A DNA stretch of 64,000 bases from Fimbriosthenelais zetlandica (Eukaryota), in NCBI GenBank assembly GCA_977030845.1, contig OZ365114.1, positions 17,794,001 to 17,858,000 on the forward strand. Direction: 5' to 3'. The notes under the pieces were generated by a model. That model ran no database searches and had not been told where the DNA came from. It saw only the letters and a list, made by a program, of their open reading frames with translations. Shown here piece after piece: positions 11,101 through 63,907 of the stretch (position 1 is its first letter; the number at the start of each line of letters is the position of its first letter). A program made the position numbers and the translations under genes.

Positions 11101-14100
11101 GAAAAAGCATTAAAGAAATTTGGTGTAGAAGTAAGTGAACCAGATCAAGTTATTCACATTTAGATAGTTTCTTCAGTAAAAGATGTTGTGAATTCTCTAA
11201 ATTCATTGTCTTTTGACATTGAAGTGTAATATGGCTGGCCTTTGCTTTCAGTGTGAAGATCCTAATAATTTCTCGCTGGTCGAGGTACTTCTCGATAAAG
11301 GGGTCACAGAGAGACTGATGAAACACGACGAGAAACCACTTGATGTAGTTCAACAGAGTCGGCAAGTAAGTACCACCCCAGACATTTATTTGTGAAAAAA
11401 ATGTGTTTGACTTGCCAGTGATAGAATATCCTAGTCCAGATATTCTTTGAGTTTAAATTATCTCCTTTGATAAATGTAAAACAATGATGATCTTCTAAGA
11501 GTTGGTTTCTTGTTTCTCTCTATCAGGACTCATTGCGACAATTGCGCATGACAAGGTTCTACATAAAGCAGAAGGAGGACCCACACGGCCCTCACCTGGC
11601 CATGTACGTGGGCAATCTGCCTACTGGCCTCTCTCAGCGTCAGTATGAGAAAATACTTCTCGATATTATTAGCAAAGGTTGGTTCTATTTCTCCTATATA
11701 TATCATTTTCAGCATCTTAAAAGAAAGGACTATCACAGATATTGATAAGATCACAACTTCCTTTTATCTCAGTAGGGTTTAAAATCACAGTTATAACAAT
11801 CTACTTCTTTGAACTGATGGTAGAAACTCATTGAGCATTTGGTGCAAATCTTTTCAGGATGCCCCCATACACATGAAATTTCGAATAAAAACATTTAAGA
11901 AAGAAATCTGTGATCAGTCCTATGTCAGAAAAGAGTCAGATTTTTCTTTTAGATATTGCTTTCACTCACCAGATCTCTCTTGCCATCCCTAGTTCAATAT
12001 TTAGAAACGGTGTAAAACAGCACATTCACAATGTAATGTAAATCAGTAGCCTTGGGAACAATATAAATTCTTATAGATAACATAGCTTGATATAAATCTG
12101 GCAGGAAAGTAGTATGTATATAAAATAATGAACATAGCATAACATAATTAATATGTATATAAACCCTCTTTCTTCCTTATAACTTAGATGCCGAATATAT
12201 ATGACTAACATGACACATTTGCTTTGAAATGGATATCTTTTGCACTTGCCACTTTAGGGAGAGAACTTACTTGCACATACTTTGTATTCTTCTCTTACAG
12301 AAAATAAATGGACAAAGTTTGATGTGATTTACTATGAGTACGGAGCACTGGTGTTATTGTTCAATAATATAGAAGCTGCAAAAAATGCTTTCAATGTTTT
12401 ACGGGAAGCCGCCTTTGATGACAAAACTTTACTTGTTCTTCTATTACCCAATATTCAGGTGGGTATTGACTATATACACCCTTTATTTCAGATGTTACAT
12501 ATTGTTTCTATCTAGATACTCATTCATATAGTTATTTAGCTGTGCTAACAATGAAATATAATATGGTATGTAGTACTTTCTTCTTGGAGTACACAGTAAT
12601 ATTTAAATATTTCCCAACTTTATTATCATTTCTTTGAGGTGAAATGATACAGATTCATCATTAAACCATTGTCGATCTATGAGGTATGCCTTAGATATCC
12701 CCCTTCTATGTGATGGTCATTTTATAAGATTATTATCTTGGCTATTTTAGCCATATATGATTCCTGACGGCGTAATCCCACTCCTGGTTATGGTGAATGT
12801 GAAGAGCGGAGGACAGCAGGGTATGGAACTCATTCGGGCTTTCCGCAAACTACTCAATCCACACCAAGTGTTTGACCTCATGAACGGTGGACCACTACCA
12901 GGGTAGGTTTTCGAATATTTATGCAACTTTCTTTTTACGATGACTTTCTGTTCCCGGTGACTCAGTGGCATTGTCGATGTGATGTTGCTTAATCTATGTA
13001 CATTGTATGTTTTTTCTCTTACAGGTTATATGTATTCCGTAATATCCCATACTTCAAGATAATGGTTTGTGGTGGCGATGGAACTGTAGGCTGGGCTTTG
13101 TCTTGTTTGGATAACGTTGGACAAGACGCCCAGTGCCAATCTCCTCCCATGGCCATTGTTCCTTTAGGCACAGGTGAGTTTTCTTTCTTCATCTATCTTT
13201 CTTATGCTCTTTTTTCACTCTCTTGTATTCTTGTTATTCCTATCGTCTGTGATATATTTATTTTAATTGTTAACAAATTGTACTTTAGGTAATGACCTAG
13301 CAAGGGTATTGCGATGGGGCCCGGGTTGTACAGGGACTGAAGACCCACTCAACTTATTACGTGATGTCATCGAAGCAGAAGAAATCAAACTAGATAGGTC
13401 TGTATACCTTTCTTTACTTATCAGTAAATTTAAATAGTTTTCAAAAGACGATTGTTTTTTTTATCTATAATCAATGTAATGTTAAAACGATATCTTCAAC
13501 CCATAGGTGGACTGTTATATTTCATCCAAATGAGAAGGAAACCGACGAGACCAAAGTGGCCATCGCCAATGACACCAATGCAGCTAACACGAACGAGGAC
13601 ACCACTTCCATCTTTGTAATGAATAATTACTTTGGAATCGGTATTGATGCCGATCTCTGTCTTGACTTTCACATGGCGCGAGAAGAAAATCCTGATAAAT
13701 TTAATAGTAGGTCAGTATGCCCCACTTTTTCTCAACTCGAGTTCTATCAGTGGTGAATTGTTAGTAGGAATGAGTATGATAGAATTAGATTACAACTGAG
13801 AATGATATCTTGTGATGTTGTGTTTTCAGGCTACGCAATAAGGGGGTTTACTTCAAAATGGGTTTAAGGAAGATGGTTAATCGACGGTCATGCAAGGATC
13901 TACATCGTATGATTAAAGTTGAAGTAGACGGGAAGCTGATAGACCTCCCACCAGTAGAAGGAATAATAATTCTCAATATTCTAAGGTATCCCCTCCTCCT
14001 ATCCTCACTTTTCACTTGTCTATATATCTATAGAAATAACTTTAAAACTAGTAATTCTTCTAAAATAAAAAATTCTAAGACACTGAATTACAAGACGATC

Positions 14101-33627: not shown

Positions 33628-36256
33628 GTAAGTAGCATTCTGTTAGTGAATGGGTTAGAATTGAAAATGAAATTTCACGTCATGCGCGTGTGAACTTAGC
33701 AATCGCATGCTCTTTTACAGGCATTATCCTGCCGGGTTGAAAAATACACACATATAGCTTATAGAAATGAAAGTGTTTGTAATGGATTTTAATGTATAAA
33801 ACTATTGAGAACCTCATCATCAGTCTATAGCACATTCTTCCATGCATTGGGGTGGCACTACTCCCCAAAGATGGGTCATCATTTTCTAAACTTTGTTCTA
33901 AATTCATGCTAAGTGCTGTGAAAAATTGCGTTTATAATAATGGAATAAATTAATGCATATCATCTTTCATTTAAATGAATAAACGATATATATTTCATGG
34001 GGGAAGAATGTGGTATTTAGATGTTGCAGTTAGGTTTGTACATACGTCTATAATTCACCTTTTGATAATGAGACAAACAGAAGTTAGCCAAAATATTTTC
34101 ATCGTTCTTAGCAATCCTCAATATTCAATTGCCTTTCTTTTTTCTGAAAACTCGCATTTCTGAAAGATCGCATTTGAATTTTAGAGCTGATTATCTAATA
34201 ATTATTTTTCATTGTATTCCTTTTGCATTGCTTATCCGTGTTCATTCCCTTGCCGCGTGCTTGCATTCATAATCAGGTCCCTAACGGTTATACGGAAAGC
34301 AGATTCTCCTCGGTAGGTTGCAATGACCCATTGAGTATCAAATTAATATTGGACCAATGAACTGTCGATGAATTAGGCTTCATAAGGTTCTGAATGTAAA
34401 AACTAGTAATACATATTTTCCCCTGGTATATCCAATACTATTAGGGCCTATACAGAGAGGAATTGTATCATATTTTGTAAAATGCACTAAGTTGGAAATT
34501 TTATGAAAGTTAAAAGCCAAGTGATAAAGCCCAAATTTAAAGTATAAAGGAAAACAATCATCGTTTGCAATTTGTAGACTACGTATATTTTACATTCCAA
34601 ATTAGCATCTTCATTTTAGATTTTTATTATTTAAACTTTCTCAAAGATTAATTGATATTTTTCTAATTTAGACATAAGATGAGCTCCGTGTTTTTGATGG
34701 TAAGAAATGTGCAAAGGTGGTGTTTCAAACAGAACATAATATTGTTATTGGTGTTGGAATGTGGATATAGTACATGTTACACCGTTATTAAATGTGGTAG
34801 GACATTATATAATATAGGGTCTGTCCAGAAGTTGTATGTATCATCACATTATGAACGTTACAGTATTGGTATAGTTGTCTCATTATCTTGTATTTTCACA
34901 AACAAAGGTTTCTACACTACTATCTGGTCATCCAAACCAGTAAATTATTCCACTGTCCTTCATGAATGTTGCTAGTCTTTTTATCTCATATCATAGAAAT
35001 CTAAGACAGTAAGTACTTAATTCTGATCTTATATATAAGTTTAATAATTATGCCACTCTGGTGGAAGATCCAATATTTAGTCATGGGTGTTTAGGCACCG
35101 AGGTTGAATTAAGCAATAAATCCAGTCAATATCAAACAATAAAATATAAATCTAAATATGTAGATTTCTCGTATTTCACATTATTCGCATACATGTTATG
35201 ACATTAACATAATAAATATTATTTATATCATATAATGGCCTACAATGACGCCTCAAAAAAGGTTTTCTTTAACATTTCAGTAACAAGCCTTGGAACCTTG
35301 CACCACTGAAGGCCCCGATATGAAGGCATGCTTCAAAATCTGAAAAGCAGATGGGGTGTGCCCGAGCCTCTAATTAGGGTGCGTGTCAGTGGTGATGGGG
35401 GACGACGCACATTACGCCAACTACACGCGTGGCCAGTCAATAATTGGACAGTTCTTCTTACATCACTAGATGTCATCACTACTTTATTTTAATTGTTAAT
35501 TTACTGTACTGAACAAGCTGTTACATTTAGATTATTTTGGCTTCAGTTTCGAAGAGCATAATAATTATAGATAATTTAATGGAAGGGTTGTCCAATTGAC
35601 TACTTGTAAATATCCACAAGAATACATATTATATTAAACAAATTTGAAATTGATTCATGGATGCATGTATGTATACAGGCTCATAGTTAAAGTTAGTCAC
35701 ATTAGGTTATTTAAACTACTCGTTACGACTTAAATCCTTCCTATACAGGATTGATAAGCACATGACTTTCACTGTTGTTTCAATGAATGTGTACACAAAA
35801 TTGGCAATTTTTTAATTAAAGCTAAAATAAAAATAAAAATAAAAACAATAAAATGAAAGAAAATAGAAAAAAAAGCTGCATTAAATCATAATGATTCTGT
35901 CATCAAATTATGAACAAACGCTTAAATAAAGCAAAAAATCCATCTTGTCTCAAGTGTTTTCCTTAGCTAAAACCAGAAGAGTCCACCGTACATGTATTAT
36001 CAGTTTATATGAATAAGTGGTACACCTTTCTTTAATTCATACAGTCAAATATCAGAAAGGACTTTCATACCTTTGGTGCCAGGCATGGAAGTACCCTCGA
36101 AATGGGCGCATGAGAGTGGCAGGTGGAATGGTGCTCTCCAATAGCTATTGCCTAACGATTCTACTATTTTTCTAATCTTTATGCCTTAAGGTGTGATAAC
36201 AGAGTGCCAGGAGTTGTGTTCACACTTATTTCCCACACATTGATTCAGACTTGGGT

Positions 36257-36555
36257 ATGAGGAGAAAGTCGTTGATGTTACTTTTAAAACAAAACCACAA
36301 GCTGGTTGAAGAATCAATTGGATACATTGGAAGAAGGGAGGAAATGACTGCCCATGAAGAGTTGGTACCTATGTCACACCAAATGAAAAAGCCGTTATCT
36401 ATGGGCGAAGAAGAGAAGCAACTTGTATTGTCTAGGGACAAATCAATGTACAAGAACGTCTGTAACTGTGTGTATCCAATACAAAACAAGATTCCAAACC
36501 TCACTCCAACGCGAAGGGAATCAGCCATTTATATTGCAGAAAGATTGGGCAAAGG
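36257..36555 (+). CDS. Exon 1 of a hypothetical low-complexity protein gene (continues at 36815 and 39362-40735)
   Basis: Open frame MRRKSLMLLLKQNHK...AERLGK ending at donor GG|GTAGGT (phase 2). Phase matches acceptor tttgacttgcag|T at 36814. No recognisable family. Confidence 0.45.
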
Positions 36556-36827
36556 GTAGGTTCTTCTATCATTCACCTACATGTACATGTCTATTCATTT
36601 AGAGCATGAGAGGTTCAGAAAAATGACGCCAGGCAGAGACACTGAACTTCTGCACGCTCCCTATATACGTGTGTATTTGTAGCATAGTTTTCATGCTCCT
36701 GGCAAGATAAGATGGATGTTAGTCTTTCGTTAGAGATATCTTCTTGATACCCATAATTATGAGGTTCAGTAAAAGTTAAAAGCATCTGTATCAAAGCATC
36801 ACTTTGACTTGCAGTATCAGTTGCCGG

Positions 36828-39357
36828 TGTAACAGCCCATTTTAACCCCCCTCCCGTTTTATACCCGGGTATACTGTAGCCTAGCCCATTTTATACCCCG
36901 GGGGTTAATTTAGGCTAGCCCAGATTATACTCCGGGGCTATTCCAGCCTAGCCTACAGTATACCCCCCCAGCCCAAAATACACCCCCCTTAAAACAGTGC
37001 CCAAAACAGGGAAAACCAAGGGGTTTGGCTAACACAACCAAGGGGTATAATCTGGCCTAGCCCAGTTCATACCCCTTGAAATATATTATAGCTAACACAA
37101 CCAAGGGGTATAATCTGGACTAGCCCAGTTCATACCCCTACACTTATAGAGCTAACACAACCAAGGGGTATATTCTGGGCTAGCCCAGATTATACCCCTT
37201 GTAATATATAGCTAACACAACCAAGGGGTATAACACAACCAAGGGGTATATTCTGGGCTAGCCCAGATTATACCCCTTGTAATATATAGCTAACACAACC
37301 AAGGGGTATAATCTGGGCTAGCCCAGTTTATACCCCTACACATATATAGCTAACACAACCAAGGGGTATAATCTGGGCTAGCCCAGTTTATACCCCTACA
37401 CATATATAGCTAACACAACCAAGGGGTATAATCTGGGCTAGCCCAGTTTATACCCCTTGTAATATATAGCTAACACAACCAAGGGGTATAATCTGGACTA
37501 GCCCAGTTCATACCCCTACACATATAGAGCTAACACAACCAAGGGGTATATTCTGGGCTAGCCCAGATTATACCCCTTGTAATATATAGCTAACACAACC
37601 AAGGGGTATAATCTGGGCTAGCCCAGTTTATACCCCTTGTAATATATAGCTAACACAACCAAGGGGTATAATCTGGGCTAGCCCAGTTTATACCCAGTTT
37701 ATAAGGGGTATCAACCAAGGGGTATAATCTGGGCTAGCCCAGTTTATACCCCTTGGTTGTGTTTGCTATATATATCAAGGGGTATAAACTGGGCTAGCCC
37801 AGATTATACCCCTTTGATGTGTTAGCTATATATTACAAGGGGTATAATCTGGGCTAGCCCATTTCATACCCAATGACATACATGTATCTAGCTAACAGAA
37901 CCAAGGGGTATAATCTGGGCTAGCCCAGTTTATACCCCTTGTAATATATAGCTAACACAACCAAGGGGTATCATCTGGGCTAGCCCAGTTTATACCCCTA
38001 CACATATAGAGCTAACACAACCAAGGAATATAAGGGGCTAGCCCAGATTATACCCCTTGGTTGTGTCAGCTATATATATTTCAAGGGGTATAAACTGGGC
38101 TAGCCCAGATTATACCCCTTGGTTGTGGTAGCTATATATTACAAGGGGTATAAACTGGGCTAGCCCAGATTATACCCCTTGGTTGTGTTAGCTAGATACA
38201 TGTATGTCATTGGGTATGAAATGGGCTAGCCCAGATTATACTCCTTGGTTGTGTTAGCTCATTATGTGAAGGGGTATAAACTGGGCTAGTCCAGATTATA
38301 CCCCTTGGTTGTGTTAGCTATATATTACAAAAGGTATAAACTGGGCTAGCCCAGATTATACCCCTTGGCTGTGTCAGCTCTATATGTGTAGGGGTATAAA
38401 CTGGGCTAGCCCAGATTATACCCCTTGGTTGTGTTAGCTCTATATGTGTAAGGGTATAAACTGGGCTAGCCCAGATTATACCCCTTGGTTGTGTTAGCTC
38501 TATATATGTAGGGGTATAAACTGGGCTAGCCCAGATTATACCCCTTGGTTGTGTCAGCTATATATATTTCAAGGGGTATAAACTGGGCTAGCCCAGATTA
38601 TACCCCTTGGTTGTGTTAGCTCTATATGTGTAGGGGTATAAACTGGGCTAGCCCAGATTATACCCCTTGGTTGTGTCAGCTATATATTACAAGGGGTACA
38701 AACTGGGCTAGCCCAGATTATACCCCTTGGTTGTGTCAGCTATATATATTTCAAGGGGTATAAACTGGGCTAGCCCAGATTATACCCCTTGGTTGTGTTA
38801 GCTCTATATGTGTAAGGGTATAAACTGGGCTAGCCCAGATTATACCCCTTGGTTGTGTTAGCTATATATTACAAGGGCTATGAACTGGGCTAGCCCAGAT
38901 TATACCCCTTGGTTGTGGTAGCTATATATTTCAAGGGGTATAAACTGGGCTAGCCCAGAATATACTCCTTGGTTGTGTATGTGTGGATGTGTGGATGTGT
39001 GTGCATGGAAGACTAATTACATACAAAATATATACATATAGAGCACAGACTGATTTGGCTTAACACAATCTAGATGATAACGTCTTCAGGAAGCAAGGTA
39101 ATTAACTCAATTTCAAATAAAAACCATGAAAACAAACAAACGTGACACTTTTCCCTGTTTTGGCCACAGTTTTCCCTGTTTTGGGCACTGTTTTAAGGGG
39201 GGTGTATTTTGGGCTGGGGGGGTATACTGTAGGCTAGGCTGGAATAGCCCCGGGGTATAATCTGGGCTAGCCTAAATTAACCCCCGGGGTATAAAATGGG
39301 CTAGGCTACAGTATCCCCGGGTATAAAACGGGAGGGGGGTTAAAATGGGCTGTTACA
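36828..39357. mobile_element. Non-autonomous TIR DNA transposon, Ginger1-like (TGT...ACA ends, CCGG TSD)
   Basis: Near-perfect 189-bp inverted repeats at 36828-37016 and 39169-39357, beginning TGTAACAGCCCATTTTAACC. CCGG directly flanks both ends (36824-36827, 39358-39361). No transposase ORF. Superfamily inferred from remembered Ginger1 hallmarks. Confidence 0.8.
37028..38977. repeat. ~60-bp tandem satellite (about 30 units) built on a 34-bp palindrome, in both orientations
   Basis: Unit gctaacacaaccaa-GGGGTATAATCTGGGCTAGCCCAG(A/T)TTATACCCC-(tacacatata|ttgtaatata)ta. Orientation switches near 37740, 37857 and 38040. Confidence 0.95.
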
Positions 39358-39361
39358 CCGG

Positions 39362-40735
39362 CACATTATCAAGCGACCTGTGAAGTTCTCGTTCTGCCAT
39401 GAGGAACGCAGGGAAAGCCTGGCACGAACTGCTGGCCAGAAACAACGGTTACCCTGCCAAGACATCCACACCGCCACAACAGAAGATGAGTCAGAAAGGC
39501 TTCCAAGGTTCATGACATTATCACCTACACCCCATAGTACTACTGTTGTGAGGGAAAACACCCACATGAAACAGTACGAGATGGAAATGAAGAACAAGGT
39601 GAGATCTAGTAGACCTGTCAGGCCAACACAGTCTGCTCCTGCTCTGGTTGGCCGCACAAGACAACCAAGAAAACCAGACCAAGTTCAACCATCCCAAAAG
39701 CTGCACAACCTGAAGGCAAGGGAGCATAGAAGTGCACCAAAGACGTCATTGGACGCATCCGAGACATCATGTATAGGTAGAAAGTCCTTATATAAACCCA
39801 AATATGAGAATTCAACAAAAATACACCCCTCTGTCAGGTTCAACATTGGCGACTGCGGAGAATGTGAAAAGCTGACCAGATGTGCCTCACCTCGGCAGAA
39901 GGGGGTGTCCTCCAGGGTTCCTTATCCACCTCAACTCCCAGTGGCCAGGTCAACTGATGGTACAGTCAGGCCACTCAAACGTGGATCTTCTAAAAATATC
40001 AACAACGAAGTGGATGTTTTCATACCATCAGCCCAAACCCCTCGGTCCTTGATTCAGTTGGGAAGCCCTAAAGAGATAAGGAAAGGGGGTTGCTTATCGC
40101 TCCAGACTAAAGATATGGAATCAGGGCAGATTAAGCCAATGATCCATCGAAGCTTCGAGGGTGAACAAGTATCAAGTGATCCTAAGGGAAAAACTGGTTG
40201 TATGCCAACAAGGTCTGACAAAGACATACTTAGTAATTTCATTAACCATCCTGTTAGCCTTTCTCTTAACCCAGATTACAAACCATACAAATCTCTGACT
40301 AAAATTGGCATTCTGAAGAAAGAACCTCCTAAAGAGTCAAAACCTTTTAGTGGCAATGACAGATCCTTGATTGTACAAAGCATCACATTAGCACATATTC
40401 CTGACAGGAAGGTCTACCCAGAACCTAAAAGCAGAACACTAGATATTACGATTCCATGCGAGTACATCGACGAAAGAACCCAAGACACAGGTGACCAAAG
40501 TGATGCTGCTTCAGACAAATCTTCCACGGGTCCTGAGAACTTGAGTAACAGATATCTCTATAAAGAAGGTGATGTTGATCTAAACTGTGCATCGAAATCT
40601 GATAATATCCTGCCAGATGAACAGAACAATCAAGATGAGAGGGTCGATATAAGGCTGGACCATAATATACAAAGTGATGGGTACTGTGGCAGCGACTGTC
40701 CATTCAATCATGGCCGGCAGAAGATGAGCATTTAA
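39362..40735 (+). CDS. Large terminal exon of a hypothetical Ser/Pro/Lys-rich, probably disordered protein; 5' end cut off by the transposon
   Basis: About 1.37 kb stop-free frame in AT-rich DNA (track ORF 39380-40735, 451 aa). The frame stays open across the reconstructed empty site back to acceptor 36814. Confidence 0.6.
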   Translation, partial: HIIKRPVKFSFCHEERRESLARTAGQKQRLPCQDIHTATTEDESERLPRFMTLSPTPHSTTVVRENTHMKQYEMEMKNKVRSSRPVRPTQSAPALVGRTRQPRKPDQVQPSQKLHNLKAREHRSAPKTSLDASETSCIGRKSLYKPKYENSTKIHPSVRFNIGDCGECEKLTRCASPRQKGVSSRVPYPPQLPVARSTDGTVRPLKRGSSKNINNEVDVFIPSAQTPRSLIQLGSPKEIRKGGCLSLQTKDMESGQIKPMIHRSFEGEQVSSDPKGKTGCMPTRSDKDILSNFINHPVSLSLNPDYKPYKSLTKIGILKKEPPKESKPFSGNDRSLIVQSITLAHIPDRKVYPEPKSRTLDITIPCEYIDERTQDTGDQSDAASDKSSTGPENLSNRYLYKEGDVDLNCASKSDNILPDEQNNQDERVDIRLDHNIQSDGYCGSDCPFNHGRQKMSI

Positions 40736-49000: not shown

Positions 49001-52000
49001 GCCATTTGTTCTATAATATTGATCAACTGTTCATCAATTTGTTATATTGTACATACGGTGATTGACTTGTTTGCCTGGCGACTGCTAATGGAAAATTAAG
49101 GAAATCCATTAGTCACAAAATGTTGTATTTCCCATCAATATTACTGATGCATTAGCTACACGAATTTCACCTGCTTTAACAACGTTTGTGAATGTTGACA
49201 TGACAAATGGGATCATTCATTAATGGTCAGACACACTAGAGCAATTCTTCTAACATTTGGCAAAGGCTAAATCTGAATAAAGTGTGACTTTCAACTGCTG
49301 AAACTATCCAGGCACCCTATATCATGCAGGGAAATAATTCTGGCCACTGCGTCCATTTTATGTGGTTTTTAAATGACGTCTAATGGTCAATTCGTATAAA
49401 AATTGATTCAGTATGCTTTAGACTTCCACATGGCGTTCACTGGTGTGACAATATTTATGATTGCCCCAGGGAAGCTGAATCACTTTCCAATGTCAATATC
49501 ATCTCAAATGCGAGCCAAAAAAGGCCAAATATTTATGATATTCAGATGGATCGATTCAATGCTTGCTTCAAATTCTCATCTGCTGGCAGATTTACAATAT
49601 TGTTACTATAGGTTAAACTATATGAACTGATCAAGAATAGGCTATATTCATTTCCACTTTCAGATTTAAAAACGCAACTATAATGGTAGTAAAATAAAGG
49701 GTCGTAGCAGTAAAATAATGGGTTGTTTGGTGCACAAACTATCCTGCCCAGCCCCCAACCATTGAGGCATTCTCTCACCCCTGGGTGTCGCATGAATAAT
49801 GGCATCTTCTTTGGACATAAGATTAATGTTAGGTACCGTCATGATGAGACCCACATGGAAGAGTCATCTCTCTCACTAGTGTTTTGTTACACAATACATT
49901 CCTATGTATTGCCACATGTTTTTCTTCCTATTGATGTTATATATTTTTTCCAATGATCCATATCGTGGAAGCTTTGATCCAGCATATCTCCAGGACTAGC
50001 CCATGTATGATTCTCTGTTGTCCTGTCATACTCTTTCAACATAAATCATTTATTTTTTTTGTCTGCTTTGGTTTTTCTTCATCCTCAACATGCCACGTGT
50101 TGGGTGTCATGTCCAAGCCAAACAGGAAACAGATGGCACAAAAAATTGAATATGGAATGGGGAAGGGTTGTCTAGAAAACGTTACAATTCAGGAAAACAA
50201 ATAAATAATATATAACACTTGAAGACGTTGAGGCCTTCAGTAAGCCATGGTCAATGCCAGGATAGCATTGTTCAGCATGTTCAAGTTTGCAGCAAGTTTA
50301 ATACTGTTAGAAACATGATTGAAGAAATCAAATTACATGTGAATGTGTAATAAAAGTAAATACGAGTGAACTAAGAAGGGTGGGCTTGGGAGGAGGTGAA
50401 TTTCCATCCTGTAGAATGGCCTTCATATAGAAGAATTGATCAAAGATTTTCATTTTTTATATTTCAGTTCCGCTCAAATCCGTCACCTGCCATGTGACGA
50501 TCCACGGTTTTATCGCAGACGTTGAGGCTATTCTACATTATGAGGCTGAGTCTCGGGATGACAGTGACACTGTGTTTGTCTTTCCTTTGGAAAATGGAAG
50601 TACGGTCTACAGTTTCACTACCCGAATCAACGACAGACTTCTGGTGGGGGAATGCCAGACAAAATACGCTGTAAGTCTGACCACAAATAATGTAGAAACA
50701 CTAAGATATTTCCCTCAAAATTGCTCCTTCAACGGAAAAGCTTCTCCCTCTACATGCTACAAAATCAGTTGGCATTGTTCTAGTGGTATATATGCCCTTC
50801 ATTGGAAGGCACCCATAGGAACTACATTGCCCAGGGTATGGTAGTTAATGCTCCTGACCCCAGATATTAATGGCAGCATATATGTTCTATATGAAAATGG
50901 CATAAAACAAGGTGATCTGCCCTCCATGAAGTTTGGACCCTCATAACCAAGATGCTGGTAATTCAGGCTTATTTAGGAGGGGGCAAACAAGAGGGCATGG
51001 CACCCCGCATGTTCCCAACTCAACTAATATTTCTCAAATACCCCCATGGAGCAATTAGGGAAAGGCCCCCAAAAAAGTCGGATATTATGGGTCTTTTAAA
51101 CTATATGAAACAGGCATTTAATGGTCAATATGTTACGTATTTCCCACAATAGAACAATATATTTTTTTCATTTTACATGTACAATATGCCTGAGACATGA
51201 AGGTATAAGTGCCCAAAAATCCTAGGTATACATGTAATGATTTGTATACATTATCTGTTATATTTGACGGTAATTTATGGCCGACTCTGACCTCTAAAGG
51301 GAAAATTGCTCCAGATTTTAATTTGGGTGAAAACCTTATGTCATATGTTGGCCTCATAAATCCAATAGTAAGAGTGTTTTTGCCATTGATTATGATTAAA
51401 TGTGCCTTTACCCCATAGGTCAAATGCCTCGTTGAAATGCCTAGTACTGCAATCAAGAAAAACTCTGCGATAAATTGGGGCCTAACTTTTGTATAAAACA
51501 TCCAAGTTGAAAAGTCATGGGAAAGGACAACAAACAGAATGAAATACACAAATTTGTATTTCAGAAACTGCGGGGAAATATATAACAAAATCCTAGCGAA
51601 AAAAGATCCCTCACAATTTCCATTTCGCCCTATATTGAACATACATTTAAGACTGCTCTGGAGCAAAGAACATGACCTCCCTTGATGCTAAGTTTCACCA
51701 TGTATGACTAATTCAAAACTAGCCAATTGTCCTATTCCTGATACCAGTATATATACACGATGCTCTAGGTGAACTACTCTAAAGTCAACATTAATCTGTG
51801 AAGCCTATTGTTGTTAATAATATCCATCATATATTCCCTGACCACCAGGCCTTGAGGCGGTACACAGACACGGTGGAGGAGGGTCACCCAGCGGCCATGT
51901 TGATTTTAGAGGAGACGGAGAATAACAGTACCTTCCGGTGTGGGGTAGGTCCCATCCCACCCCTTACTCCAGTCATCATCAGACTCAATTACGTCCAGGA

Positions 52001-52628
52001 GCTCCTCATTGGGGTGGATAAGGGGGTGCATTTTACCCTCCCATCTCTGATGAATCCAGCCCAAAGGCCAGTCATAGGAGGTGGGTATATTCAGCAGATC
52101 AGAATATGAGATCAAACATTGTTTTTGATGGTAAAAAAACTACTATTCATCTCTTGCATTCTTTCTGATGGTAAAATAAATAAATCTCTTGCAAGAGAAA
52201 AAGTATAACTTTGGTAAATGTTCTGTAACGGATTTGTATATTAGATGGCAGCTATTACCCACATGTCCAACATTTTACCACATGTCCAGATCTATGTTAA
52301 CCTCTGATGAGTAATGCCAACACATTGCACCATTTCTGTCATGAACTAGAGACCCATAAATACACAAATGCCAACGTTTTTGCTCTACTTATGTCATTTC
52401 CATCCAGGTTTTCAAAGGCAATGGTCTCTAATGAGTCAGAGCACCCTGAGTCGGAGCACCCTGAACAGGAGCAGTCTGAGACCAGGATTCCTCGCCACGC
52501 CCCGACACATCCCCTCAGCACTCGACTTCGAGCTAGAGGTCAGAGGTCAATATAAGGTCATGGCCATCAAGACGCCACGTGACCAACTGACAGGGTCTTT
52601 CCTCAACCAGGAGGACACACATGTAAAG
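46066..52628 (+). CDS. VIT-domain protein, VWA5A-like; first four coding exons (gene presumably continues beyond the window)
   Basis: Exons 46066-46156, 50468-50670, 51849-52080, 52408-52628 join in phase: ...IGLVATRSKTEVPLKSVTCHVTIHGFIADVEAILHY...VFVFPLENGSTVYSFTTRINDRLLVGECQ...FRCGVGPIPP...IRLNYVQEL...FTLPSLMNP. This matches the VIT consensus (VPLKS, F.FP, F...VG.L.P, I...Y..EL). Confidence 0.85.
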
Positions 52629-52705
52629 GTAATCATCATGAAGATGGTATTAGCATGCGGGATGTTACGCATATATATAAGCAATGAAATGTGTGATAGG
52701 CCTAC

Positions 52706-53555
52706 TGTAGTGACCCACGGGAAATAAAGACCGACAAATAATTAGTATTCGTACCGGACCTTGACATTTATTAAACCACAGATACTAACAAGACATTTGC
52801 AGGCTGTTTTGGCAGACGCACAAAAGAGAACCAGTGGTAGTCAAGCAACCACACTTCTTACAGAGTCAACGGATGCGGTCGGTTCCAATCCCGTTCCGGG
52901 AACGAGATATGGATCCGGCCGGCATCCGGCAAGCTACTTAAATGGAAGTGATATACTCCATGCCGGTTGAGCCGAAGACCTTGATGTCTTCAGCCCGGCA
53001 AAGGAGTAATCCTGAATCTCTATTAGCTGATTACATCGAAATACCTGAAAGCAACCTCTGGTATAACGTCAATGCAAACATAAGGTTAATGGTTCACTAA
53101 CTCCTAGGAATTCGGAGTTCGGAACCCCTAGAAAAACTACTAGGAACCCTTGGAACCCACAGGCACACTGGGAACCCTTATACAAAGTGACCAAGGTCCT
53201 ACTGAAATGACTATTCCATACAGCATTATGGTGTAGGAATGAAAGTAGTTAAATAAAATAAGTTATTATACATCAAGTTGCATGATTTAGCATAAGTGTA
53301 AATACAAATGTAGACAGCAAGCACACTTCTAGGATTAAGCTATTAACATGAGCATGACATTGTGAAAGTTTATAGCTTAAGAGAGAGTGAAATGTTTATA
53401 ATGAAAATAATAACTACAAAAAAGCATAGCAGCAAAGCGCGCGTACTAGCTGACGGGCAGGTGTTGAACTAAATAAGCACTCAGGTGAGACAAAGATGCT
53501 AGTACTGTAGACTGTCTATAGAGGTAGCAGCGGCAGAGGCACTGAATTCATTACA
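52706..53555 (-). repeat. 3' LTR (850 bp), termini TGTAATGA...TCACTACA
   Basis: TG...CA ends with 7/8 terminal inverted match; directly abuts the polypurine tract; left end identical to 63930-64000. Confidence 0.9.
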
Positions 53556-54116: not shown

Positions 54117-56537
54117 TTAGACGTCGGTCTCACGGCCAGCCGGGTGGTCAGTGCCGGGTGGCGATGACGTGGAGGAGGATCCGGCCCCTGAAGATGGCGA
54201 AGCTTCAGGAGCACCTAACTGAATGTCCGTAGTCATCTGGGCGAGCCGGCTCAGGTCCCCGGGGGTCGCTGAGTCGGACTCGTCCCCACTCTGTAACAGA
54301 GCATCTTCATCAAAGTTCTCATCTCTAAGCGGCATCCCGGCAGTGATTTGTTGGAGCAGGGTGATGCCGGCGTAGGGGTGAGACTCGTCCACTACAACCT
54401 CTTGAGCGGCCGGCAAAAGAGGAGTAGGCTGGATCACCGGAGTCGGATCCGGTAGGATCAGAAAATCCACTGGAGTAGAGTCGACAGGCGCTTTACTGAC
54501 AGTGGCCGCAGGGATAGGCTTCACTCCGGGAGGAAGGGAGCCGGTCGCCTGCTTCTTCATAATTAACTCAGCCGCCCGGCCCATCAGAGGAGTAGGTCGG
54601 GAGGTTACTTCTGCTAACCTGAGCGGAGTGGAAGTGCCGCGAGGCGTTTCTGTCCGGACAGGTGGTCTTGAAGCACCGAGGGTAGCAGCATAGGAAGCCG
54701 CAGGCACCACAGGTACTGGAGGATCGGGAAGAACTACTGCTGCCGGGGCGGGGGCCGGGGCAGCCGCACCCAACAACTCTGGAGAGGTGTCCATGAAGGC
54801 CTGCCACTCCGGAGGAACGTTGATGGCGGAGAGGTTCTTCTCCATCAGTTGTTCCTCTAGTTGCTGGATAGTAGCATCCCTTCGTTTCATGGCGGCTTGC
54901 AAGGACTGGTTTTTGACCTTTTCGCGGGAGAGCTCCACGTGAAGGACAGCGACCTGGGCTTGAAGCTGCATAACCCGTTGCTCCGCGGAGGAGGAGATGG
55001 TCTCTTCCACTCGGCGACGAGTCGTCTTCATGGCCTGCTCGGCTAACGTTTCCATCGAGGTTGCCAGTCGCCTAGCCTCCTCGACGAACCCACCGAGCTG
55101 GACTTGCATGGCCGAGCAGATCCCGTCCACGGCCTGGGCTGCAGAGAGGGTCTGGCTGGGGCCAGCTGCCGGCGTCGCGGAAGGTACCGCGGCCGCCGGG
55201 GCTGATGGCTGCTTTGGCGGTGCCGGGCGGGGCACAGCCTGCCGGGCCGGAGCAGGAGCAGAGGCGGCTGCCGGGGTGGCGAGCTTCTTCTGTTTGCTGG
55301 GGCCTGGTTTCTTCATCTGTGGACGCGTAGTTACCACGGCCATCACTGAGGGTGGGGCCTGGTAAACAGCTTCCAGTGGAGACCTGCGTTTCGGTGCTCC
55401 ACCACCTGGAGACGACACGGGGTCGTAGCCGGCCTTCCTCTTCCGGGGGATGGAGTAGGAGGGTGGAGGGCCAAAGACCTCAGGTGCCATTCCGGCTATC
55501 TTCTTATACTCGGTCAAGCCTAGGGCATTGACCTTAGAAAAGGCCCGGTTCGGCTTCAGCACCGGGTTGGTGTTGTAGTCACGAGCTAGGCTGTCCTTTC
55601 TACTTGACTTGTGGCGGCCTTCCTCACGGAGACGTCCATGACGGCCGAGGTCGACTCGGCGGTCCATCTCCCAGCCACAGTTTTGAAAATAGCAGACATA
55701 GACATCTTGCCCGGGGGCGTGTACTTCGCACAGATGCCTATATAGCCTATCCTCGGTAAAGTAACGCCGCACCTTCCCGTTCGCACTCTGTCCTGGGGAC
55801 CGGCAGATCATGAAGGGGCAGCGGTAGCCGGGACGCCACAGGGTATGCGCCAGCTCCAGCTTTTTCCATACCTGAGGGTTGTACTTGGGCCACCAAGAAA
55901 CTTTCTCCGGTTTGGTCTTAATGTCCAAAAGTTCGGTGAACCGAGCTTTGTAGAGAGAGAGCCGCTGGTCTGGGTACTCACTCTCATCATCACTCTCCTT
56001 CTCCTCATCAAAGCCGGGACGTTCCGTAGGATGGTCCGGATTCATGGGGAGGCAGTCGGTGACATCTTTAGGTGTGTAGAAGCTCATGGGGAGATCTTCG
56101 AACTTCCATACCCGGCGAGGGATGGGTCGCTTATCCTCATGGCACCATCGCGGAGTGTTGACAGTCAACTTCTCCGGATGTTTCTGATTCAGCCGCAGTT
56201 CCTCAGCCGGCGGAGGGAGGTCCTCGCCGGGAGCAGTCACCGGGGCCGTAGAGCTCGGAAGAGGTGAAGAGGGAGCTTTATCCTTAGCCTTCTTCTTCTT
56301 CTTCTTTGCCTTCTTGCGGGTAGAAGCAGTCGCCTGTTCTGCCGCAAGGAATCCTTCGTCCAGTCCAGTAGCCGGGGACGGAGTCTCCTGCTGCTGGGGT
56401 GCTGCCGGGGCAGCTTCTTCATGAGATACAGGATCCGGCTGGGGAGCCGTCTCCTGCATCGATGGAGCGGTAACTTCCATCGCCTCTTCCACAGAAGCGA
56501 CGGGACCGTCCGGCACAGCGAGCTGTGCACTAGCCAT
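54117..56537 (-). CDS. Accessory ORF3 of the retrotransposon: ~806-aa NLS / C2H2-like zinc finger / coiled-coil protein
   Basis: Stop-free 2.4 kb, same strand as gag-pol, between pol and PPT. ATG at 56537 (MASAQL...). Basic patches RKKAKKKKKK and RKRK-x12-PKRR; C-x4-C...L-x2-H-x4-H and C-x4-C-x3-M-x5-L-x2-H motifs (~55611-55820); heptad-like helix (~54840-55090); no signal peptide or TM segment seen. Confidence 0.85.
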   Translation of the reverse strand: MASAQLAVPDGPVASVEEAMEVTAPSMQETAPQPDPVSHEEAAPAAPQQQETPSPATGLDEGFLAAEQATASTRKKAKKKKKKAKDKAPSSPLPSSTAPVTAPGEDLPPPAEELRLNQKHPEKLTVNTPRWCHEDKRPIPRRVWKFEDLPMSFYTPKDVTDCLPMNPDHPTERPGFDEEKESDDESEYPDQRLSLYKARFTELLDIKTKPEKVSWWPKYNPQVWKKLELAHTLWRPGYRCPFMICRSPGQSANGKVRRYFTEDRLYRHLCEVHAPGQDVYVCYFQNCGWEMDRRVDLGRHGRLREEGRHKSSRKDSLARDYNTNPVLKPNRAFSKVNALGLTEYKKIAGMAPEVFGPPPSYSIPRKRKAGYDPVSSPGGGAPKRRSPLEAVYQAPPSVMAVVTTRPQMKKPGPSKQKKLATPAAASAPAPARQAVPRPAPPKQPSAPAAAVPSATPAAGPSQTLSAAQAVDGICSAMQVQLGGFVEEARRLATSMETLAEQAMKTTRRRVEETISSSAEQRVMQLQAQVAVLHVELSREKVKNQSLQAAMKRRDATIQQLEEQLMEKNLSAINVPPEWQAFMDTSPELLGAAAPAPAPAAVVLPDPPVPVVPAASYAATLGASRPPVRTETPRGTSTPLRLAEVTSRPTPLMGRAAELIMKKQATGSLPPGVKPIPAATVSKAPVDSTPVDFLILPDPTPVIQPTPLLPAAQEVVVDESHPYAGITLLQQITAGMPLRDENFDEDALLQSGDESDSATPGDLSRLAQMTTDIQLGAPEASPSSGAGSSSTSSPPGTDHPAGRETDV

Positions 56538-57568
56538 GGGGCTATTCTTCTTAAAACAACACACTGCCGAGATGCCGGGGCTGCCGGGATGCCGGGAATC
56601 AGTCAAGCGTGACGAGTGTAACTTTGCGTAAGGGACCTACAAAAACCAAGAAAAACACCAGAAATTACTAATAATTCGGTTACAATTTTTGGCTCCGTAG
56701 ATGCCTAAGACACTCATACACAGAATGATCACAAAATGTGTTGTTCAACATACAATAATGCGAGTAAAACATGCAGAAATAGAGCGGTAGAAACACAGCG
56801 TGATACTCACAGGTTCAAGTAAAAAGCGGAAGTGACTCTGGGTAGAGGTGCCGGAAAGCGTGAGAGTGTTTGTCGTAAAAACTACCGACCCTCTTACTCG
56901 TCACATCTTTCCCTATGGCCTACAAAAACCTCAATGAGTCTTACTCCCTACGAGAACCTAGTGTCACGTGGCCCCTGTGATCCAGACCTTCTTCGAATGG
57001 ATCCGCCTACTGCATAAATTTTACAACATCCTCCAATGACCTAACCGGGTCACCGTGACCTACTTCCAACCCGCCTCTACCCTCTTTCATGAAACAAGTG
57101 GGCGTGTTATGATCACGGCCGTACCACGGCTTTATTGGTCAAAAGAATCTTCATACCCGTTCATAGGTAGGAATTTAATGTCTTATAAAAGTCAGGAGGG
57201 CTGCCACGAAGGGGCGGCCTCTTCTCATCCTGATTGACAGGACCACATGGATCTGTCACTTCATACTGTTTGGTCCGGCACGTAGGATGCATTCATTATC
57301 GCCCAGCCGAGCAGCCATTCCCTTGAATTTGTCAAAGTCTCGTCCAGCTGACTAGCTGTCACCGGGTTGGATTCGTGCAAACTCATGCCGGGACAGGTAC
57401 TGGGACTGGTTGCCAGTAGGGAATACCTTGCCGGCAGCCCGTCCTCGGAGCCTGACTCGCAAAAAGAGGGTAAGTCAAATTGCAAAATATCTTAGGTTTT
57501 CTTCATGCTTCATAAGTACTTCTCGTTGTGTGATTTTATTCTCTATCTTCGTATAGTGGTAGTAAATA

Positions 57569-60500
57569 CTACCGGACATAGTCGGTATACCTAACTGGGG
57601 CCCTTATCTGTCTTTTACCTGCCGCGCGGGCTACCGGGACTGCCACAGGCTTCAAAGGTGATAAATCATCCTCTGGCCCTGTATCCGGCACTGCCGCGGC
57701 AGGTGTGGCCGGCACTTCGATTGCCGGGCCACCTACCTTCTTCCTTGGCCTCAGTTTCTTCACATAGGTAACCTTTTCTGCCCTTTTTCTACTTAGGTTC
57801 CGTTTAGGCTTAGGAGGATCTGGTATTCTCACCCTCATCGGCTGACCTTTCTTCTTCCGAGGACGTCGCCGGGCCGGAGCCGGGGCAACTATTCCATCGG
57901 GAGCGTCCTTGCCGGGGATCGTGCGGCCGCAAAGGTCCGTGGTTATATATTCCACCCCCTTATCTTGCTGAGCACGATACTCCGGAGCCGTATGTAAGTT
58001 TACCGTTTGTATCGCTCCATCTTTGCCAAAAACGGGCTTCAAGTAATCTACATGCCACCTCAGTTTACTTCCATCGGTGGATTCTAATTCATAGGTAGTT
58101 CCGCCCGTTTGCCGGGTCACCACATAAGGTCCGTCGTACTTGCAACTTATCTTACGGGCGGCCTGGGCCGGCATATACCTATGAACCAGTTGACCTATCT
58201 TGTAGGTCCTTGGCCTGGAACGTGCATCAAAGTGTCGCTTCTGGTGCACGGCCGCTACGCCTAATTGCTCTCTTATAAACTGATGCCCTTTTCTCAATTG
58301 TTCTTTCAGTTGTTGAACAAAGGACACCCGGCAGGGAAAATCTAACGACCCCGGCACTACTCCGTAAAGCAGATCGGGAGGCGTCCATATCTCCGAGCCA
58401 AAGAGGGCACAGTTGGGTGTAACATAGGTACTGGCATGCACCGTCCCACGATAGGCACTGGCAATACACGGTACCAAGAGGTCCCAATTTGTCTCATCGT
58501 AACTGGTAACGCAAGAAAGCTGTTCGGTTAGCACCCTATTGAATCTTTCCACGAGTCCATTACTCGAGGGCCTATAAGGCAGCGTTAACAGTTTTTCCAT
58601 GCCCATTAGTGAACAGAGTTCCTTCAACAACATGGACCGGAATTCCGGCGCACCGTCCGTCTGGAGGGAGACCGGCGGTCCATATCTAAGGATCCACTCA
58701 TTGAATAGAGCGTGGGCGACAGTCTCAGCCTTGTGATCTGGAAGCGGCAAGGCTTCCACCCACTTGGAGAAAAAGTCAGTGATCACTAATACACAGGTGT
58801 TCCCACGAAGTGTCGTTTGGAACGGTCCTATGATATCTAAGGAAATTCGGGAAAACCGGGTTCCGTGGATCTCCTTTTTCAATGGAGTCAGGCCGCGGCC
58901 GGCCCGGCTTTTGCGCATAGCACATGCCGGACATGCTTTGACCCAACGTTCTATGTCCCGCTTCAAGCCGGGCCAATAGAAACGTGTCTTCACACTCCAT
59001 ATCGTCTTAAAGCCTCCATAATGACCACCCATTTTGGTTCCATGAACACTTTGGAAAACTTCTTCACGCATTGCCGGCGGGACTACTATGCGCCATTTGG
59101 CACGGCCCGTAGCTTTGCGTACCCAGCGAAGACGGAGAATCCCATCTTCACCTACTTCTAAATCATCCCAAAGAGCAGCCAGCGTCTGAAATTCCTCCGA
59201 CTCTCCCCGAAGTCGTGTTCGCTCAGGTAATTCAGCGCCCGCTTGCTTCAATTTGACAATTATCTTCACATCCGGATCCTCCTTCTGTGCTTCCAACATG
59301 CCGGAGTCATGCTTAAACACTGATATAGAAGAGATCACCGGTGGATCCACAGCTTGAGCGCACTCACAACTACAACGACCACATTTATCGCGCCTAGGCA
59401 GCCTAGATAGAGCGTCCGCGTTCTGGTGCTTAGCACCCGGACGATGCAATATCTTGCCACTACTGATGCCATATTCTTGGATCGTGGTGAGCCATCGTGC
59501 CAAGATGTTTTCGGGGTCTTTGAAGTTGACTAACCATTTCAATGAAGCATGATCAGTACGAACGACAAAGTCCTCGCAACCCAATAAGAAATGCCGGAAC
59601 TTCTTCAGGAAACGCACTACCGCTAGTAACTCACGCTTCGTGGTGCAATAATTCTGCTGTGCCTTATTCAGAGAATTACTAGCATAGGCAATGACTCGTT
59701 CCTTCCCATCTTGGATCTGTGATAGGACGCCAGAAATACCGAAATTACTAGCATCCGTATCCAAGACATAAGTCCCTTTATCTCTCGGATACCCTAACAC
59801 AGGAGCCTGTATTAGAGCCTTCCTGATGGACTCAAATGCTTTTTCACATCCTATCGTCCAATCAAACCGCTTTGTGTAACTACCACCTAAGCGAGTAGCT
59901 TTAGTGATTACATCCCGCATGGGTTTAGCAAGTTCAGTGAAATTCGGGATAAATTCCCTATAATAGGAACTGAATCCAATGAACTGCCTGAGTTCCTTGG
60001 GAGTCTCCGGCCGGGGCCAGTTCTTCACGGCCCGAACTTTTGCCGGATCGGGTTGAACACCTTTACCCGAAACTATCCTCCCCAAGTACTCTACTTTACG
60101 TCTGAAGAGTTTGCACTTTTTGGGCTTTAACTTAAGTCCATAGTTTTGCAACCGCACAAACACTTCTCTGAGATTAGCTAACATTTCTTCAAACGTTTTG
60201 CCAAAAACAATAATGTCATCGATGTAGACTAAGCATTTCTTCCATCTTAGTCCACTCAACATTGTCTCCATAGCTCTTTCGAACGTTGCCGGGGCATTAC
60301 ACAACCCAAAGGACATGACTTTGAATTGAAATAAGCCGAGGCTTGAGATGAAGGCAGTCTTATCTTTACTGTCTTCATCCATAGCTATCTGCCAATAGCC
60401 GGAGTCCAAATCCAATGAGCAGAACCATTCGTTACCACCCAGAGCATCCAGAGCTTCGTCTATTCGGGGAAGCGGATAGCTATCCGTCCTAGTTGCCTGG

Positions 60501-61936
60501 TTAAGTTTCCGATAGTCTACACAGAAACGCATAGAACCATCCTTCTTCTTGACCATGACAATAGGAGAAGCCCACGAGCTTTCACTCGGTTCGACTACTC
60601 CTTTACTCATCATTCTACGGATCTCTTCCTCGGCTACTTCCCTGCGAGACTTAGGAAGCCGCCTATAAGGCTGCCGGACGGGATGAGGATCCGTAAGTTC
60701 TATACGATGTTTCACCTGGGTAGTCTGGCTAAAGACGTCGCCGGGTAAAGCGAAACACGTGCGGAACTCTTCTAGCAGATCTGTTGCCAGCTGCCGGTGC
60801 CGCGGATTAGTGATATGCGATTCGTCAGTGGCCTTTTTCAAGGGGCACTCTTCACTATCAGGTATCACAAAATCCGGACACATCACTTCATCGTCGGTTA
60901 TCTCTACCGGATGCAAATCACCCAGCGGAGTACCCGCCGTTAACTTCATAGGCACTGGGGTCGGATTGGTAATCGGCACTCTAGTTTCTGAGTCTCGTAC
61001 AACATACGTGTGCAAACTCCCCAGATTATGCTTCGCCAATCCGATCCTGTCGGGTTCAAATAACAATTCACCCATAACCGGCTCCGACACAGTGATACGG
61101 CACAGATGTAACTGGAATGCTTTCAGAGTAATGTCCTCTGAGAGCCGTGCTTTTCCAGCCGTCCGGCGCGCGCGACACATCACATGTGTGGATCCGTTCT
61201 CCAAGGTGAATCGTCCCGACCAGTCCAGGCTACATTGGTAGACATGATAGAAATCTGCCCCAAGCACTCCGTCATCGTCGCCGTCTATGCCGGACACGAT
61301 TAAGCAAGGGATTTCAAACATCCGTCCACCAATGCAAAAGGGAAAAATTCCCACTCCTTCAGTCTGTAATGGATTCCCGTCAGCCACCTTAACCTCGGTA
61401 CGATTTGGAATCAGAGGGGGCGGATCACGCAGCGAATCATAGAACCGCTTGGTTATCAAGGACGTCGTCGCCCCAGTATCCATTAACAGTTCTCCGCACT
61501 GATTGTTCACCATTACAGGAACATACCAACGATCCTTGACCAGAACGCTTTGTCCCGGCAAGGTTAAAGTGTGGCAACTTAAGTCAGCAGGCCTGATCTT
61601 CACTATTTTCATCTGATTGGGATTGCCATTGGTTGGCTTAGCCACAAACAAATGAGAGCGACTCTCTGGGCCGGGTCTACTACAGGCCGTGCCGGGGTCA
61701 TGACGCCCGGCAACAGCTCCCGGCTCAGGATCAGGAACCTGAACGATTTCCTTCTCTACAAGGGAAACTGCTTTTCCCTGCTTCTTATCGTCTTCTGACA
61801 TCGCCAAACTTTGTTTGCTCGATACAGTATTCTGAAGCGACTTCGACTGTTTCAGCTGATCCTTCCTTTGATCAACGTCATCAGCCGGCTTCAGCCCCGT
61901 CAGTGCACTTCTTACTGAGGAGCCGGAGGGTTTTCC
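57569..61936 (-). CDS. pol: Pol polyprotein (aspartic protease, reverse transcriptase, RNase H, DDE integrase), expressed by predicted -1 frameshift
   Basis: LLMDTGA (PR); CVDYRKLN, YPLP, LDLDSGYWQ, YIDDII (RT); LDTDAS...ELLAV...VRTDHASL (RH); H-x6-H...CPAC, LDIIGP, DFFSKW, TDGAPEF, GLVERFN, GPY (IN). The frame is open from 61945, upstream of the track start at 61807. Confidence 0.97.
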   Translation of the reverse strand, partial: GKPSGSSVRSALTGLKPADDVDQRKDQLKQSKSLQNTVSSKQSLAMSEDDKKQGKAVSLVEKEIVQVPDPEPGAVAGRHDPGTACSRPGPESRSHLFVAKPTNGNPNQMKIVKIRPADLSCHTLTLPGQSVLVKDRWYVPVMVNNQCGELLMDTGATTSLITKRFYDSLRDPPPLIPNRTEVKVADGNPLQTEGVGIFPFCIGGRMFEIPCLIVSGIDGDDDGVLGADFYHVYQCSLDWSGRFTLENGSTHVMCRARRTAGKARLSEDITLKAFQLHLCRITVSEPVMGELLFEPDRIGLAKHNLGSLHTYVVRDSETRVPITNPTPVPMKLTAGTPLGDLHPVEITDDEVMCPDFVIPDSEECPLKKATDESHITNPRHRQLATDLLEEFRTCFALPGDVFSQTTQVKHRIELTDPHPVRQPYRRLPKSRREVAEEEIRRMMSKGVVEPSESSWASPIVMVKKKDGSMRFCVDYRKLNQATRTDSYPLPRIDEALDALGGNEWFCSLDLDSGYWQIAMDEDSKDKTAFISSLGLFQFKVMSFGLCNAPATFERAMETMLSGLRWKKCLVYIDDIIVFGKTFEEMLANLREVFVRLQNYGLKLKPKKCKLFRRKVEYLGRIVSGKGVQPDPAKVRAVKNWPRPETPKELRQFIGFSSYYREFIPNFTELAKPMRDVITKATRLGGSYTKRFDWTIGCEKAFESIRKALIQAPVLGYPRDKGTYVLDTDASNFGISGVLSQIQDGKERVIAYASNSLNKAQQNYCTTKRELLAVVRFLKKFRHFLLGCEDFVVRTDHASLKWLVNFKDPENILARWLTTIQEYGISSGKILHRPGAKHQNADALSRLPRRDKCGRCSCECAQAVDPPVISSISVFKHDSGMLEAQKEDPDVKIIVKLKQAGAELPERTRLRGESEEFQTLAALWDDLEVGEDGILRLRWVRKATGRAKWRIVVPPAMREEVFQSVHGTKMGGHYGGFKTIWSVKTRFYWPGLKRDIERWVKACPACAMRKSRAGRGLTPLKKEIHGTRFSRISLDIIGPFQTTLRGNTCVLVITDFFSKWVEALPLPDHKAETVAHALFNEWILRYGPPVSLQTDGAPEFRSMLLKELCSLMGMEKLLTLPYRPSSNGLVERFNRVLTEQLSCVTSYDETNWDLLVPCIASAYRGTVHASTYVTPNCALFGSEIWTPPDLLYGVVPGSLDFPCRVSFVQQLKEQLRKGHQFIREQLGVAAVHQKRHFDARSRPRTYKIGQLVHRYMPAQAARKISCKYDGPYVVTRQTGGTTYELESTDGSKLRWHVDYLKPVFGKDGAIQTVNLHTAPEYRAQQDKGVEYITTDLCGRTIPGKDAPDGIVAPAPARRRPRKKKGQPMRVRIPDPPKPKRNLSRKRAEKVTYVKKLRPRKKVGGPAIEVPATPAAAVPDTGPEDDLSPLKPVAVPVARAAGKRQIRAPVRYTDYVR
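61885..61936 (-). promoter_or_regulatory. Predicted -1 ribosomal frameshift signal (G GAA AAC heptamer plus downstream stem-loop)
   Basis: Heptamer at 61936-61930 in gag frame; hairpin CCGGCT..TCAGT/ACTGA..AGCCGG at 61926-61885. Confidence 0.75.
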
Positions 61937-63795: not shown

Positions 63796-63907
63796 GATAA
63801 CGAAATCACGGAATCCACCTACTCTGGCTACTCTGCATATAGGTTCGCGATTGCAACGCCGCGTTCACCTTAATGGGATCCCTTTTTAGGGGGACCGCTT
63901 TTCCAGT

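Follow-up and report, generated by a model that had tools for sequence, protein, structure and literature searches.

Most copies of the transposon family described here are bounded by mismatched flanks, and it is this flank pattern that is new. The family is represented by one copy in the window (the stretch of 64,000 nucleotides of the Fimbriosthenelais zetlandica genome that was analysed) and is, with high confidence, a young, gene-less foldback derived from Ginger1. Our best explanation as a whole, in which this foldback family carries an overhang out of the donor site that replaces CCGG by CAGG at the target, is one that we hold with about as much belief as doubt.

The element in the window

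The transposon spans positions 36828-39357 (2530 bp) and has TGT...ACA termini (TGTAAC at the start, TGTAA at both ends), with terminal inverted repeats (TIRs) of 189 bp (36828-37016 on the plus strand and 39169-39357 on the minus strand) that differ from each other by 2 mismatches (positions 43 and 104). CCGG lies on either side (36824-36827 and 39358-39361, plus strand) in a palindromic target context, tgCCGGca (inverted extension 6); this is a true 4-bp duplication, which is the minority state across the family. The original prediction had described the termini, the TIRs and the CCGG duplication within a palindrome, and all of these were recovered, as was its derivation of the interior palindrome from the TIR motif: several copies of a 19-bp half-site are found within each TIR, the left one of which also contains two abutting degenerate 34-bp palindromes (36866-36933), and the half-site of the interior palindrome is this same motif. 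The array between the ends (37028-38978, unstranded) holds 32 copies of a CTAG-centred palindrome of 34 bp, in line with the roughly 30 that had been proposed; the tandem unit, however, is not 34 but 60 bp long, that is, the palindrome and a spacer of ~26 bp (period 60, 28.9 copies). The orientation of the spacer switches three times, being forward to ~37750, reverse to ~37870, forward to ~38020 and reverse to 38978, and the inverted arms extend up to 366 nt; the element is thus a foldback. Its two ends differ in subtype: an extra subterminal block of ~190 bp (38979-39168, minus strand) that belongs to the long-end subtype is present at the right end only, making this copy a chimera of two end subtypes and the sole copy seen to join a 189-type end to a long end. 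No coding gene lies within the element.

Judging from the reading frames around it, the window copy is predicted to interrupt a coding exon of a host gene and to truncate that gene. A predicted upstream exon on the plus strand (36200-36555, an open frame followed by a GT donor at 36556-36557) is in phase with a CAG acceptor (AG at 36813-36814) located 13 bp before the element. The predicted last exon would begin at 36815-36827 and continue, on the same strand, at 39362-40735 (457 codons). After in silico removal of the element and one CCGG, the frame is open to 40735, whereas with the element in place it stops at 36843-36845. The predicted gene has no Pfam match and no longer or convincing homologue, the single hit being one weak, unrelated repeat protein. 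Exon-like frames are also found elsewhere in the window, at 13394-13756 and 50440-52727, which we take to resemble a diacylglycerol kinase and a VIT/vWA-type protein.

Copies, ends and arrays of the family

Searches of the element's own genome yielded 85 exact matches to the 16-bp end and 2870 to the array motif, compared to 0 for each of the reversed-pattern controls, so that neither motif can be attributed to chance. Ends were scored by a 23-bp match with at most 3 mismatches, which gave 86 ends (one, L103, which diverges after 16 bp, was lost and two slightly mutated ones were gained). These fall into 38 pairs, with 10 left unpaired. The lengths of paired copies range over 1138-9503 bp, apart from one copy of 19,384 bp that contains a nested Gypsy-type insert, and the 35 copies contained in one stretch hold 13-117 interior units each. 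Both array orientations are present in 24 of these 35 fully contained copies; among the 30 orientation flips, 9 are clean at the palindrome and 21 have an odd spacer. The family comprises several end subtypes, with TIRs of 148 bp or about 390 bp where other ends are combined (as against 189 bp here), and copies with long ends are mirror-symmetric from end to end. Among young copies, the TIRs are 98-100% identical; in older, decayed relatives the subterminal segment is longer. The family would have arisen by mirror duplication of one end of an array-carrying Ginger1 element, and its arrays would grow, flip and swap ends between copies via recombination or template switching at the self-complementary unit. 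Judging from their identity to the TIR motif, the palindromes may be extra transposase-binding sites.

Nearly all matches to the array motif (2855 of the 2870) lie in TIR-anchored loci, and of the remaining 15, 11 are in the intron of a decayed transposase gene described below and in two decayed copies. Because the array is almost confined to elements, there is no free satellite; the family has the long modular inverted tandem-repeat arms, without coding capacity, by which foldbacks are recognized, and lacks the long arrays independent of a mobile element that make a satellite. The original prediction had placed the repeats inside TIR-bounded elements and proposed a search for free arrays lacking TIRs, and the placement holds. 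Its idea of a satellite being born is doubtful, given that the array was already in the intron of the Ginger1 transposase relic and that a sister family has arrays of its own, and the label of a hyper-mobilisable parasite fits poorly with about 45-50 copies, as against 2962 matches for an ordinary short repeat.

Relation to Ginger1

Ginger1 was defined by TGTNR ends, TIRs of 40-270 bp, a CCGG/CCGT target and a Gypsy-like transposase (H2C2, DDE, GPY/F, OTU or Ulp1) (Bao, Kapitonov, Jurka 2010, PMC2836005). The family has the TGTNR termini, a TIR length within that range (about 40-270 bp) and the 4-bp CCGG/CCGT target in common with Ginger1, the last on the evidence of empty sites, which, in the minority of copies whose paralogues extend across the junction, are 4 bp long with the sequence CCGG; related elements of the same genome have an intron-containing transposase with H2C2, DDE and OTU, as Ginger1 does (PMC2836005). 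An exact 4-bp target-site duplication (TSD), likewise a Ginger1 trait, is found in the window copy and in 7 of the 38 paired copies overall, which sets the family apart from plain Ginger1 members; among 112 Hydra elements of Ginger1, the true TSDs were CCGG in 75% and CCGT/ACGG in 24% (PMC2836005). Mismatched flanks, palindrome arrays and foldback derivatives, all of them seen in the family, go unmentioned in the available text of that paper.

The link to Ginger1 rests on a sister family, reached via an OTU search, and on a decayed transposase gene, reached via a DDE-core search with the sister transposase core. The decayed gene (G000:C25 ~22534380-22537960; L210:7379-L211:1460) contains stops and frameshifts, retains Integrase_H2C2 and rve domains and an SH3-like C-terminal match, and has many best homologues with an H2C2+rve+OTU architecture; no reverse transcriptase (RT) was found within about 38 kb around it. 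Its GT-AG intron holds the 60-bp array of the window (53-57 of 60 positions identical in the 5 units compared), broken by an inverted-repeat element of ~690 bp. No TIR remains around this relic, and its array could therefore be the remnant of an old insertion into the intron. The sister family (L170, L244-L282; 44 ends) has degenerate TIRs that are asymmetric, and palindrome arrays of two different kinds. In the copy on C10 (L170, G000:C10:24390907-24398807), which has TGT...ACA termini and CCGG|CCGG flanks, 67- and 69-bp arrays of a homologous CTAG-centred palindrome flank OTU-bearing transposase pieces; a copy on C27 holds H2C2, rve and OTU, and short non-autonomous copies join the 67- and 69-bp arrays directly. 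Since the relic carries it in its intron and the sister family has arrays of its own, the array looks like an inherited part of Ginger1 anatomy that expanded later.

The relic's intronic array, the sister transposase gene and the H2C2+rve+OTU homologues bear out the view that the element is non-autonomous and Ginger1-derived. The autonomous partner proposed along with this view was sought, and a decayed gene with the array and a sister gene with homologous arrays were identified, but an intact transposase gene bounded by the family TIRs was not found by Gypsy-integrase tblastn of the family loci or by searches with the old subterminal segment, OTU and the DDE core (150 of 668 candidates scored). 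A further open frame of 837 aa (L161, G000:C14 ~685500), the ends of which were not found, combines an integrase-like core with OTU and is presumably Ginger2-like.

Empty sites and the target

Empty paralogous sites show a 4-bp target, which rules out a blunt insertion with no duplication, a duplication of 2 bp and a target of 6 bp. Readable empty sites are available for a minority of copies (the flank of L051 is single-copy, and the flank repeats of L096 and L043 do not span the junction). In a tandem tRNA-Pro cluster, one tRNA-Pro gene is interrupted by a copy flanked by CAGG|CCTG (L046:7069-9684), whereas the empty paralogue reads CCGG; the empty paralogues of L055, L037 and the sister-family copy L252 read CCGG as well. 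An abundant short inverted-repeat element (L110-L121 and genome-wide, 2962 arm matches) has a CCGG within its arm and has repeatedly served as a landing site, for 6 of the 38 family copies and several sister copies. Four mismatched copies (L047, L104, L105 and L106) sit in this one repeat arm, which, counted by eye among the 100 matches listed of 2962, has CCGG in 74 cases, CCTG in 3 and CAGG in none. Since CCGG empty sites stand opposite CAGG-flanked copies, at least some CCGG targets were turned to CAGG on insertion.

Mismatched flanks

Flanks are identical in 7 of the 38 pairs (5 CCGG, one of which is the centre of an inverted duplication, 1 CCGT and 1 GAGG); the non-identical pairs comprise 15 CAGG|CCTG, 7 CAGG|CCGG, 5 CCGG|CCTG and 4 odd cases, among them L051 with CAGT|CCGT. 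The original prediction had staked itself on 4-bp CCGG/CCGT duplications in other copies; with duplications in only these 7 pairs it fails to the letter on this point, yet the empty sites show that CCGG is the target. When all 86 ends are read as left flanks, 47 are CAGG, 29 are CCGG and 10 are other, and the form CCTG|TGT occurs at 0 of the 86 family ends and 0 of the 44 sister ends. A circle junction with a one-sided spacer would yield CCTG|TGT ends, and is rejected on this count (0 of 130).

The two ends of a copy change independently (the 15/12/5 distribution fits, p = 0.34), and the frequency of CAGG differs with the neighbouring target base: 19 of 20 ends next to A, 3 of 3 next to T (22 of 23 with A and T pooled), 18 of 32 next to C and 7 of 21 next to G (p = 3 × 10−4). 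In the 12 mixed copies, a neighbouring G is on the unchanged side in a ratio of 7:0 (p = 0.016). Both the CCGG and the CAGG states occur within every common end haplotype of the family, and the change persists in old, decayed relatives. In the sister family, where CAGG is much rarer than in the family of the window element (p = 2 × 10−6), it was observed at 7 of 23 R-type ends but at 0 of 21 L-type ends (all 44 ends, p = 0.011), the L-type tip having its first 8 bases in common with the family of the window element. For 22 of the 23 sister R ends, CAGG was examined by lineage and no clustering was detected (p = 0.95). Strict inheritance of the flanks is ruled out by the presence of both states within haplotypes together with this lack of lineage clustering.

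Origin of the changed flanks

Everything said here about mechanism is deduced from counts over a few dozen copies in a single assembly. That the changed base is a sequencing or assembly error, or an ordinary later mutation at the junction, is very hard to credit. Long palindromes are difficult to sequence, which speaks for an artefact, but the TIRs of young copies are near-identical, the CCGG-TGTAACAG context is unchanged at the sister L ends, the change is a transversion rather than CpG decay, and CAGG is missing from the listed empty repeat arms.

The explanation we favour is a carried overhang similar to that of piggyBac, although our confidence in it falls slightly short of even. Copies would be excised together with a 5' overhang of a few donor bases from the flank and would land at 4-bp CCGG sites, where this overhang would often be sealed into the 4-nt target gap instead of faithful gap fill, placing CAGG for CCGG at about 60% of the ends. 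At each end, donor overhang and target would then pair as a 4-bp heteroduplex, repaired by the host separately from the one at the other end, and the A would have entered the pool from occasional CCTG/CAGG targets. A carried overhang accounts for the asymmetry between ends and between families and for the missing CCTG left flanks, and has a precedent in piggyBac, where a 4-nt donor flap or overhang pairs with a 4-nt target gap (PMC7351741) and asymmetric TSDs have been explained by mismatch repair at each end (PMC8717057). The likeness has limits: piggyBac is another superfamily, its non-canonical event is rare (about 2%) compared to the majority of ends here, and in piggyBac the canonical TTAA overwrites an odd target, whereas here a non-canonical base overwrites the canonical target (PMC7351741, PMC8717057). 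Several of our own tallies also run against it. The effect of the neighbouring base is not predicted by a 4-nt overhang, the CAGG ends do not cluster by lineage and common haplotypes hold both states, changes at both ends require both mismatches to be repaired towards the overhang, and the CAGT|CCGT flanks of L051 require patchy repair.

Some of these same observations suit self-templating, a possible but rather unlikely alternative, in which the first base of the element, in a gap-repair or hairpin intermediate, would template a single A and so perfect the quasi-palindrome at the junction, (T)ACA-GG-TGT(A), the change arising anew with each jump instead of being inherited from the donor. The change is always the same single one, in two families; it is near certain next to A, where it extends the palindrome (19 of 20); CAGT|CCGT in L051 becomes one event on the known second target, CCGT; and the independence of the ends, the lack of clustering by lineage and the persistence in old, decayed relatives all agree with it. 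The sister family, however, does not: none of its 21 L-type ends, with the same first 8 bases, is changed, including 7 with the favourable A, and at the R-type end the favourable A accompanies just 1 of the 7 changed ends. Self-templating thus requires the extra assumption of end-specific processing, and no precedent for it was found in the literature.

A quite improbable third explanation holds that the true targets are CATG, CAGG or CCTG and that only a 2-nt GG overhang, left by end processing of the retroviral type, is captured, for a net insertion of GG-element-CC at the centre of the target. This accounts for ends that read CC outward at nearly all sites; copies in the context TA-CAGG|CCTG-TA would derive from TACATGTA, which outnumbers TACCGGTA by a factor of 5 (254 vs. 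52 in the DNA examined), and the effect of A would be explained as well. L050 and L102 point to an acceptance of CCTG- or GAGG-type targets. However, CATG, CCTG or CAGG empty sites are predicted for L046, L055, L037 and L252, where the paralogues read CCGG, and an obligatory GG is contradicted by CCGT|CCGT, CAGT|CCGT and GAGG|GAGG. Capture of GG may apply to the TA-flanked copies (L054, L060, L096 and L107).

The discussion in the 2010 paper calls the excision mechanism of Ginger1 unknown, including how both strands are freed (PMC2836005). A broader reading, which we offer tentatively and with doubt outweighing belief, is that Ginger1, whose integrase is of the retrovirus type although it is a DNA transposon, cuts the second strand outside the element (or via a hairpin) and rewrites the target at most insertions, so that the flanks would be a genomic record of the excision step that is missing for DNA transposons of the integrase type, and that palindrome arrays would belong to the regular anatomy of Ginger1. 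At most ends one base in a fixed position is changed, and in the sister family this is specific to one end; the pattern narrows down the site of the second-strand cut and the repair of the junction, and offers a simple sequencing readout for an assay. For annotation, the consequence is that methods based on TSDs would miss or mis-bound most such copies. In the open-access literature, searched at the level of titles and abstracts, no report of mismatched Ginger1 flanks or of Ginger1 foldbacks was found, and passages of PMC10045372, PMC4786924 and PMC8460389 contributed nothing further.

Comparison with other foldbacks and local rearrangement

The theme of a satellite derived from a transposon is itself already known, because the foldbacks Tetris (from Drosophila virilis) and Galileo have TIR-derived tandem repeats. 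As in the present family, these elements have a non-autonomous mirror form, tandem repeats of the terminal domain and arrays of variable length, and a link to rearrangements, and extra transposase sites have been proposed for them (PMC4079207). Unlike the family, they are Mutator-like or P-type elements, with TSDs of 8-10 bp in Tetris, and Tetris has seeded long satellite arrays, whereas the arrays of the family stay inside the elements and have a unit that is itself palindromic (PMC4079207).

Positions 54117-63864 of the window are taken up by an LTR retrotransposon of the Gypsy type that has gag-like, pol and a third long ORF; the 19.4-kb family copy, L107, harbours a nested relative (74% in the integrase region). 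Elsewhere (L035/L036/L283, G000:C11 ~49821000-49831900), an inverted duplication of 3468 bp (99.7%) of the adjacent DNA is centred on a family copy and looks like a rearrangement caused by the element; the foldback form appears to drive local rearrangement. The duplicated DNA includes an open frame of 446 aa, and a one-ended family copy abuts the duplication.
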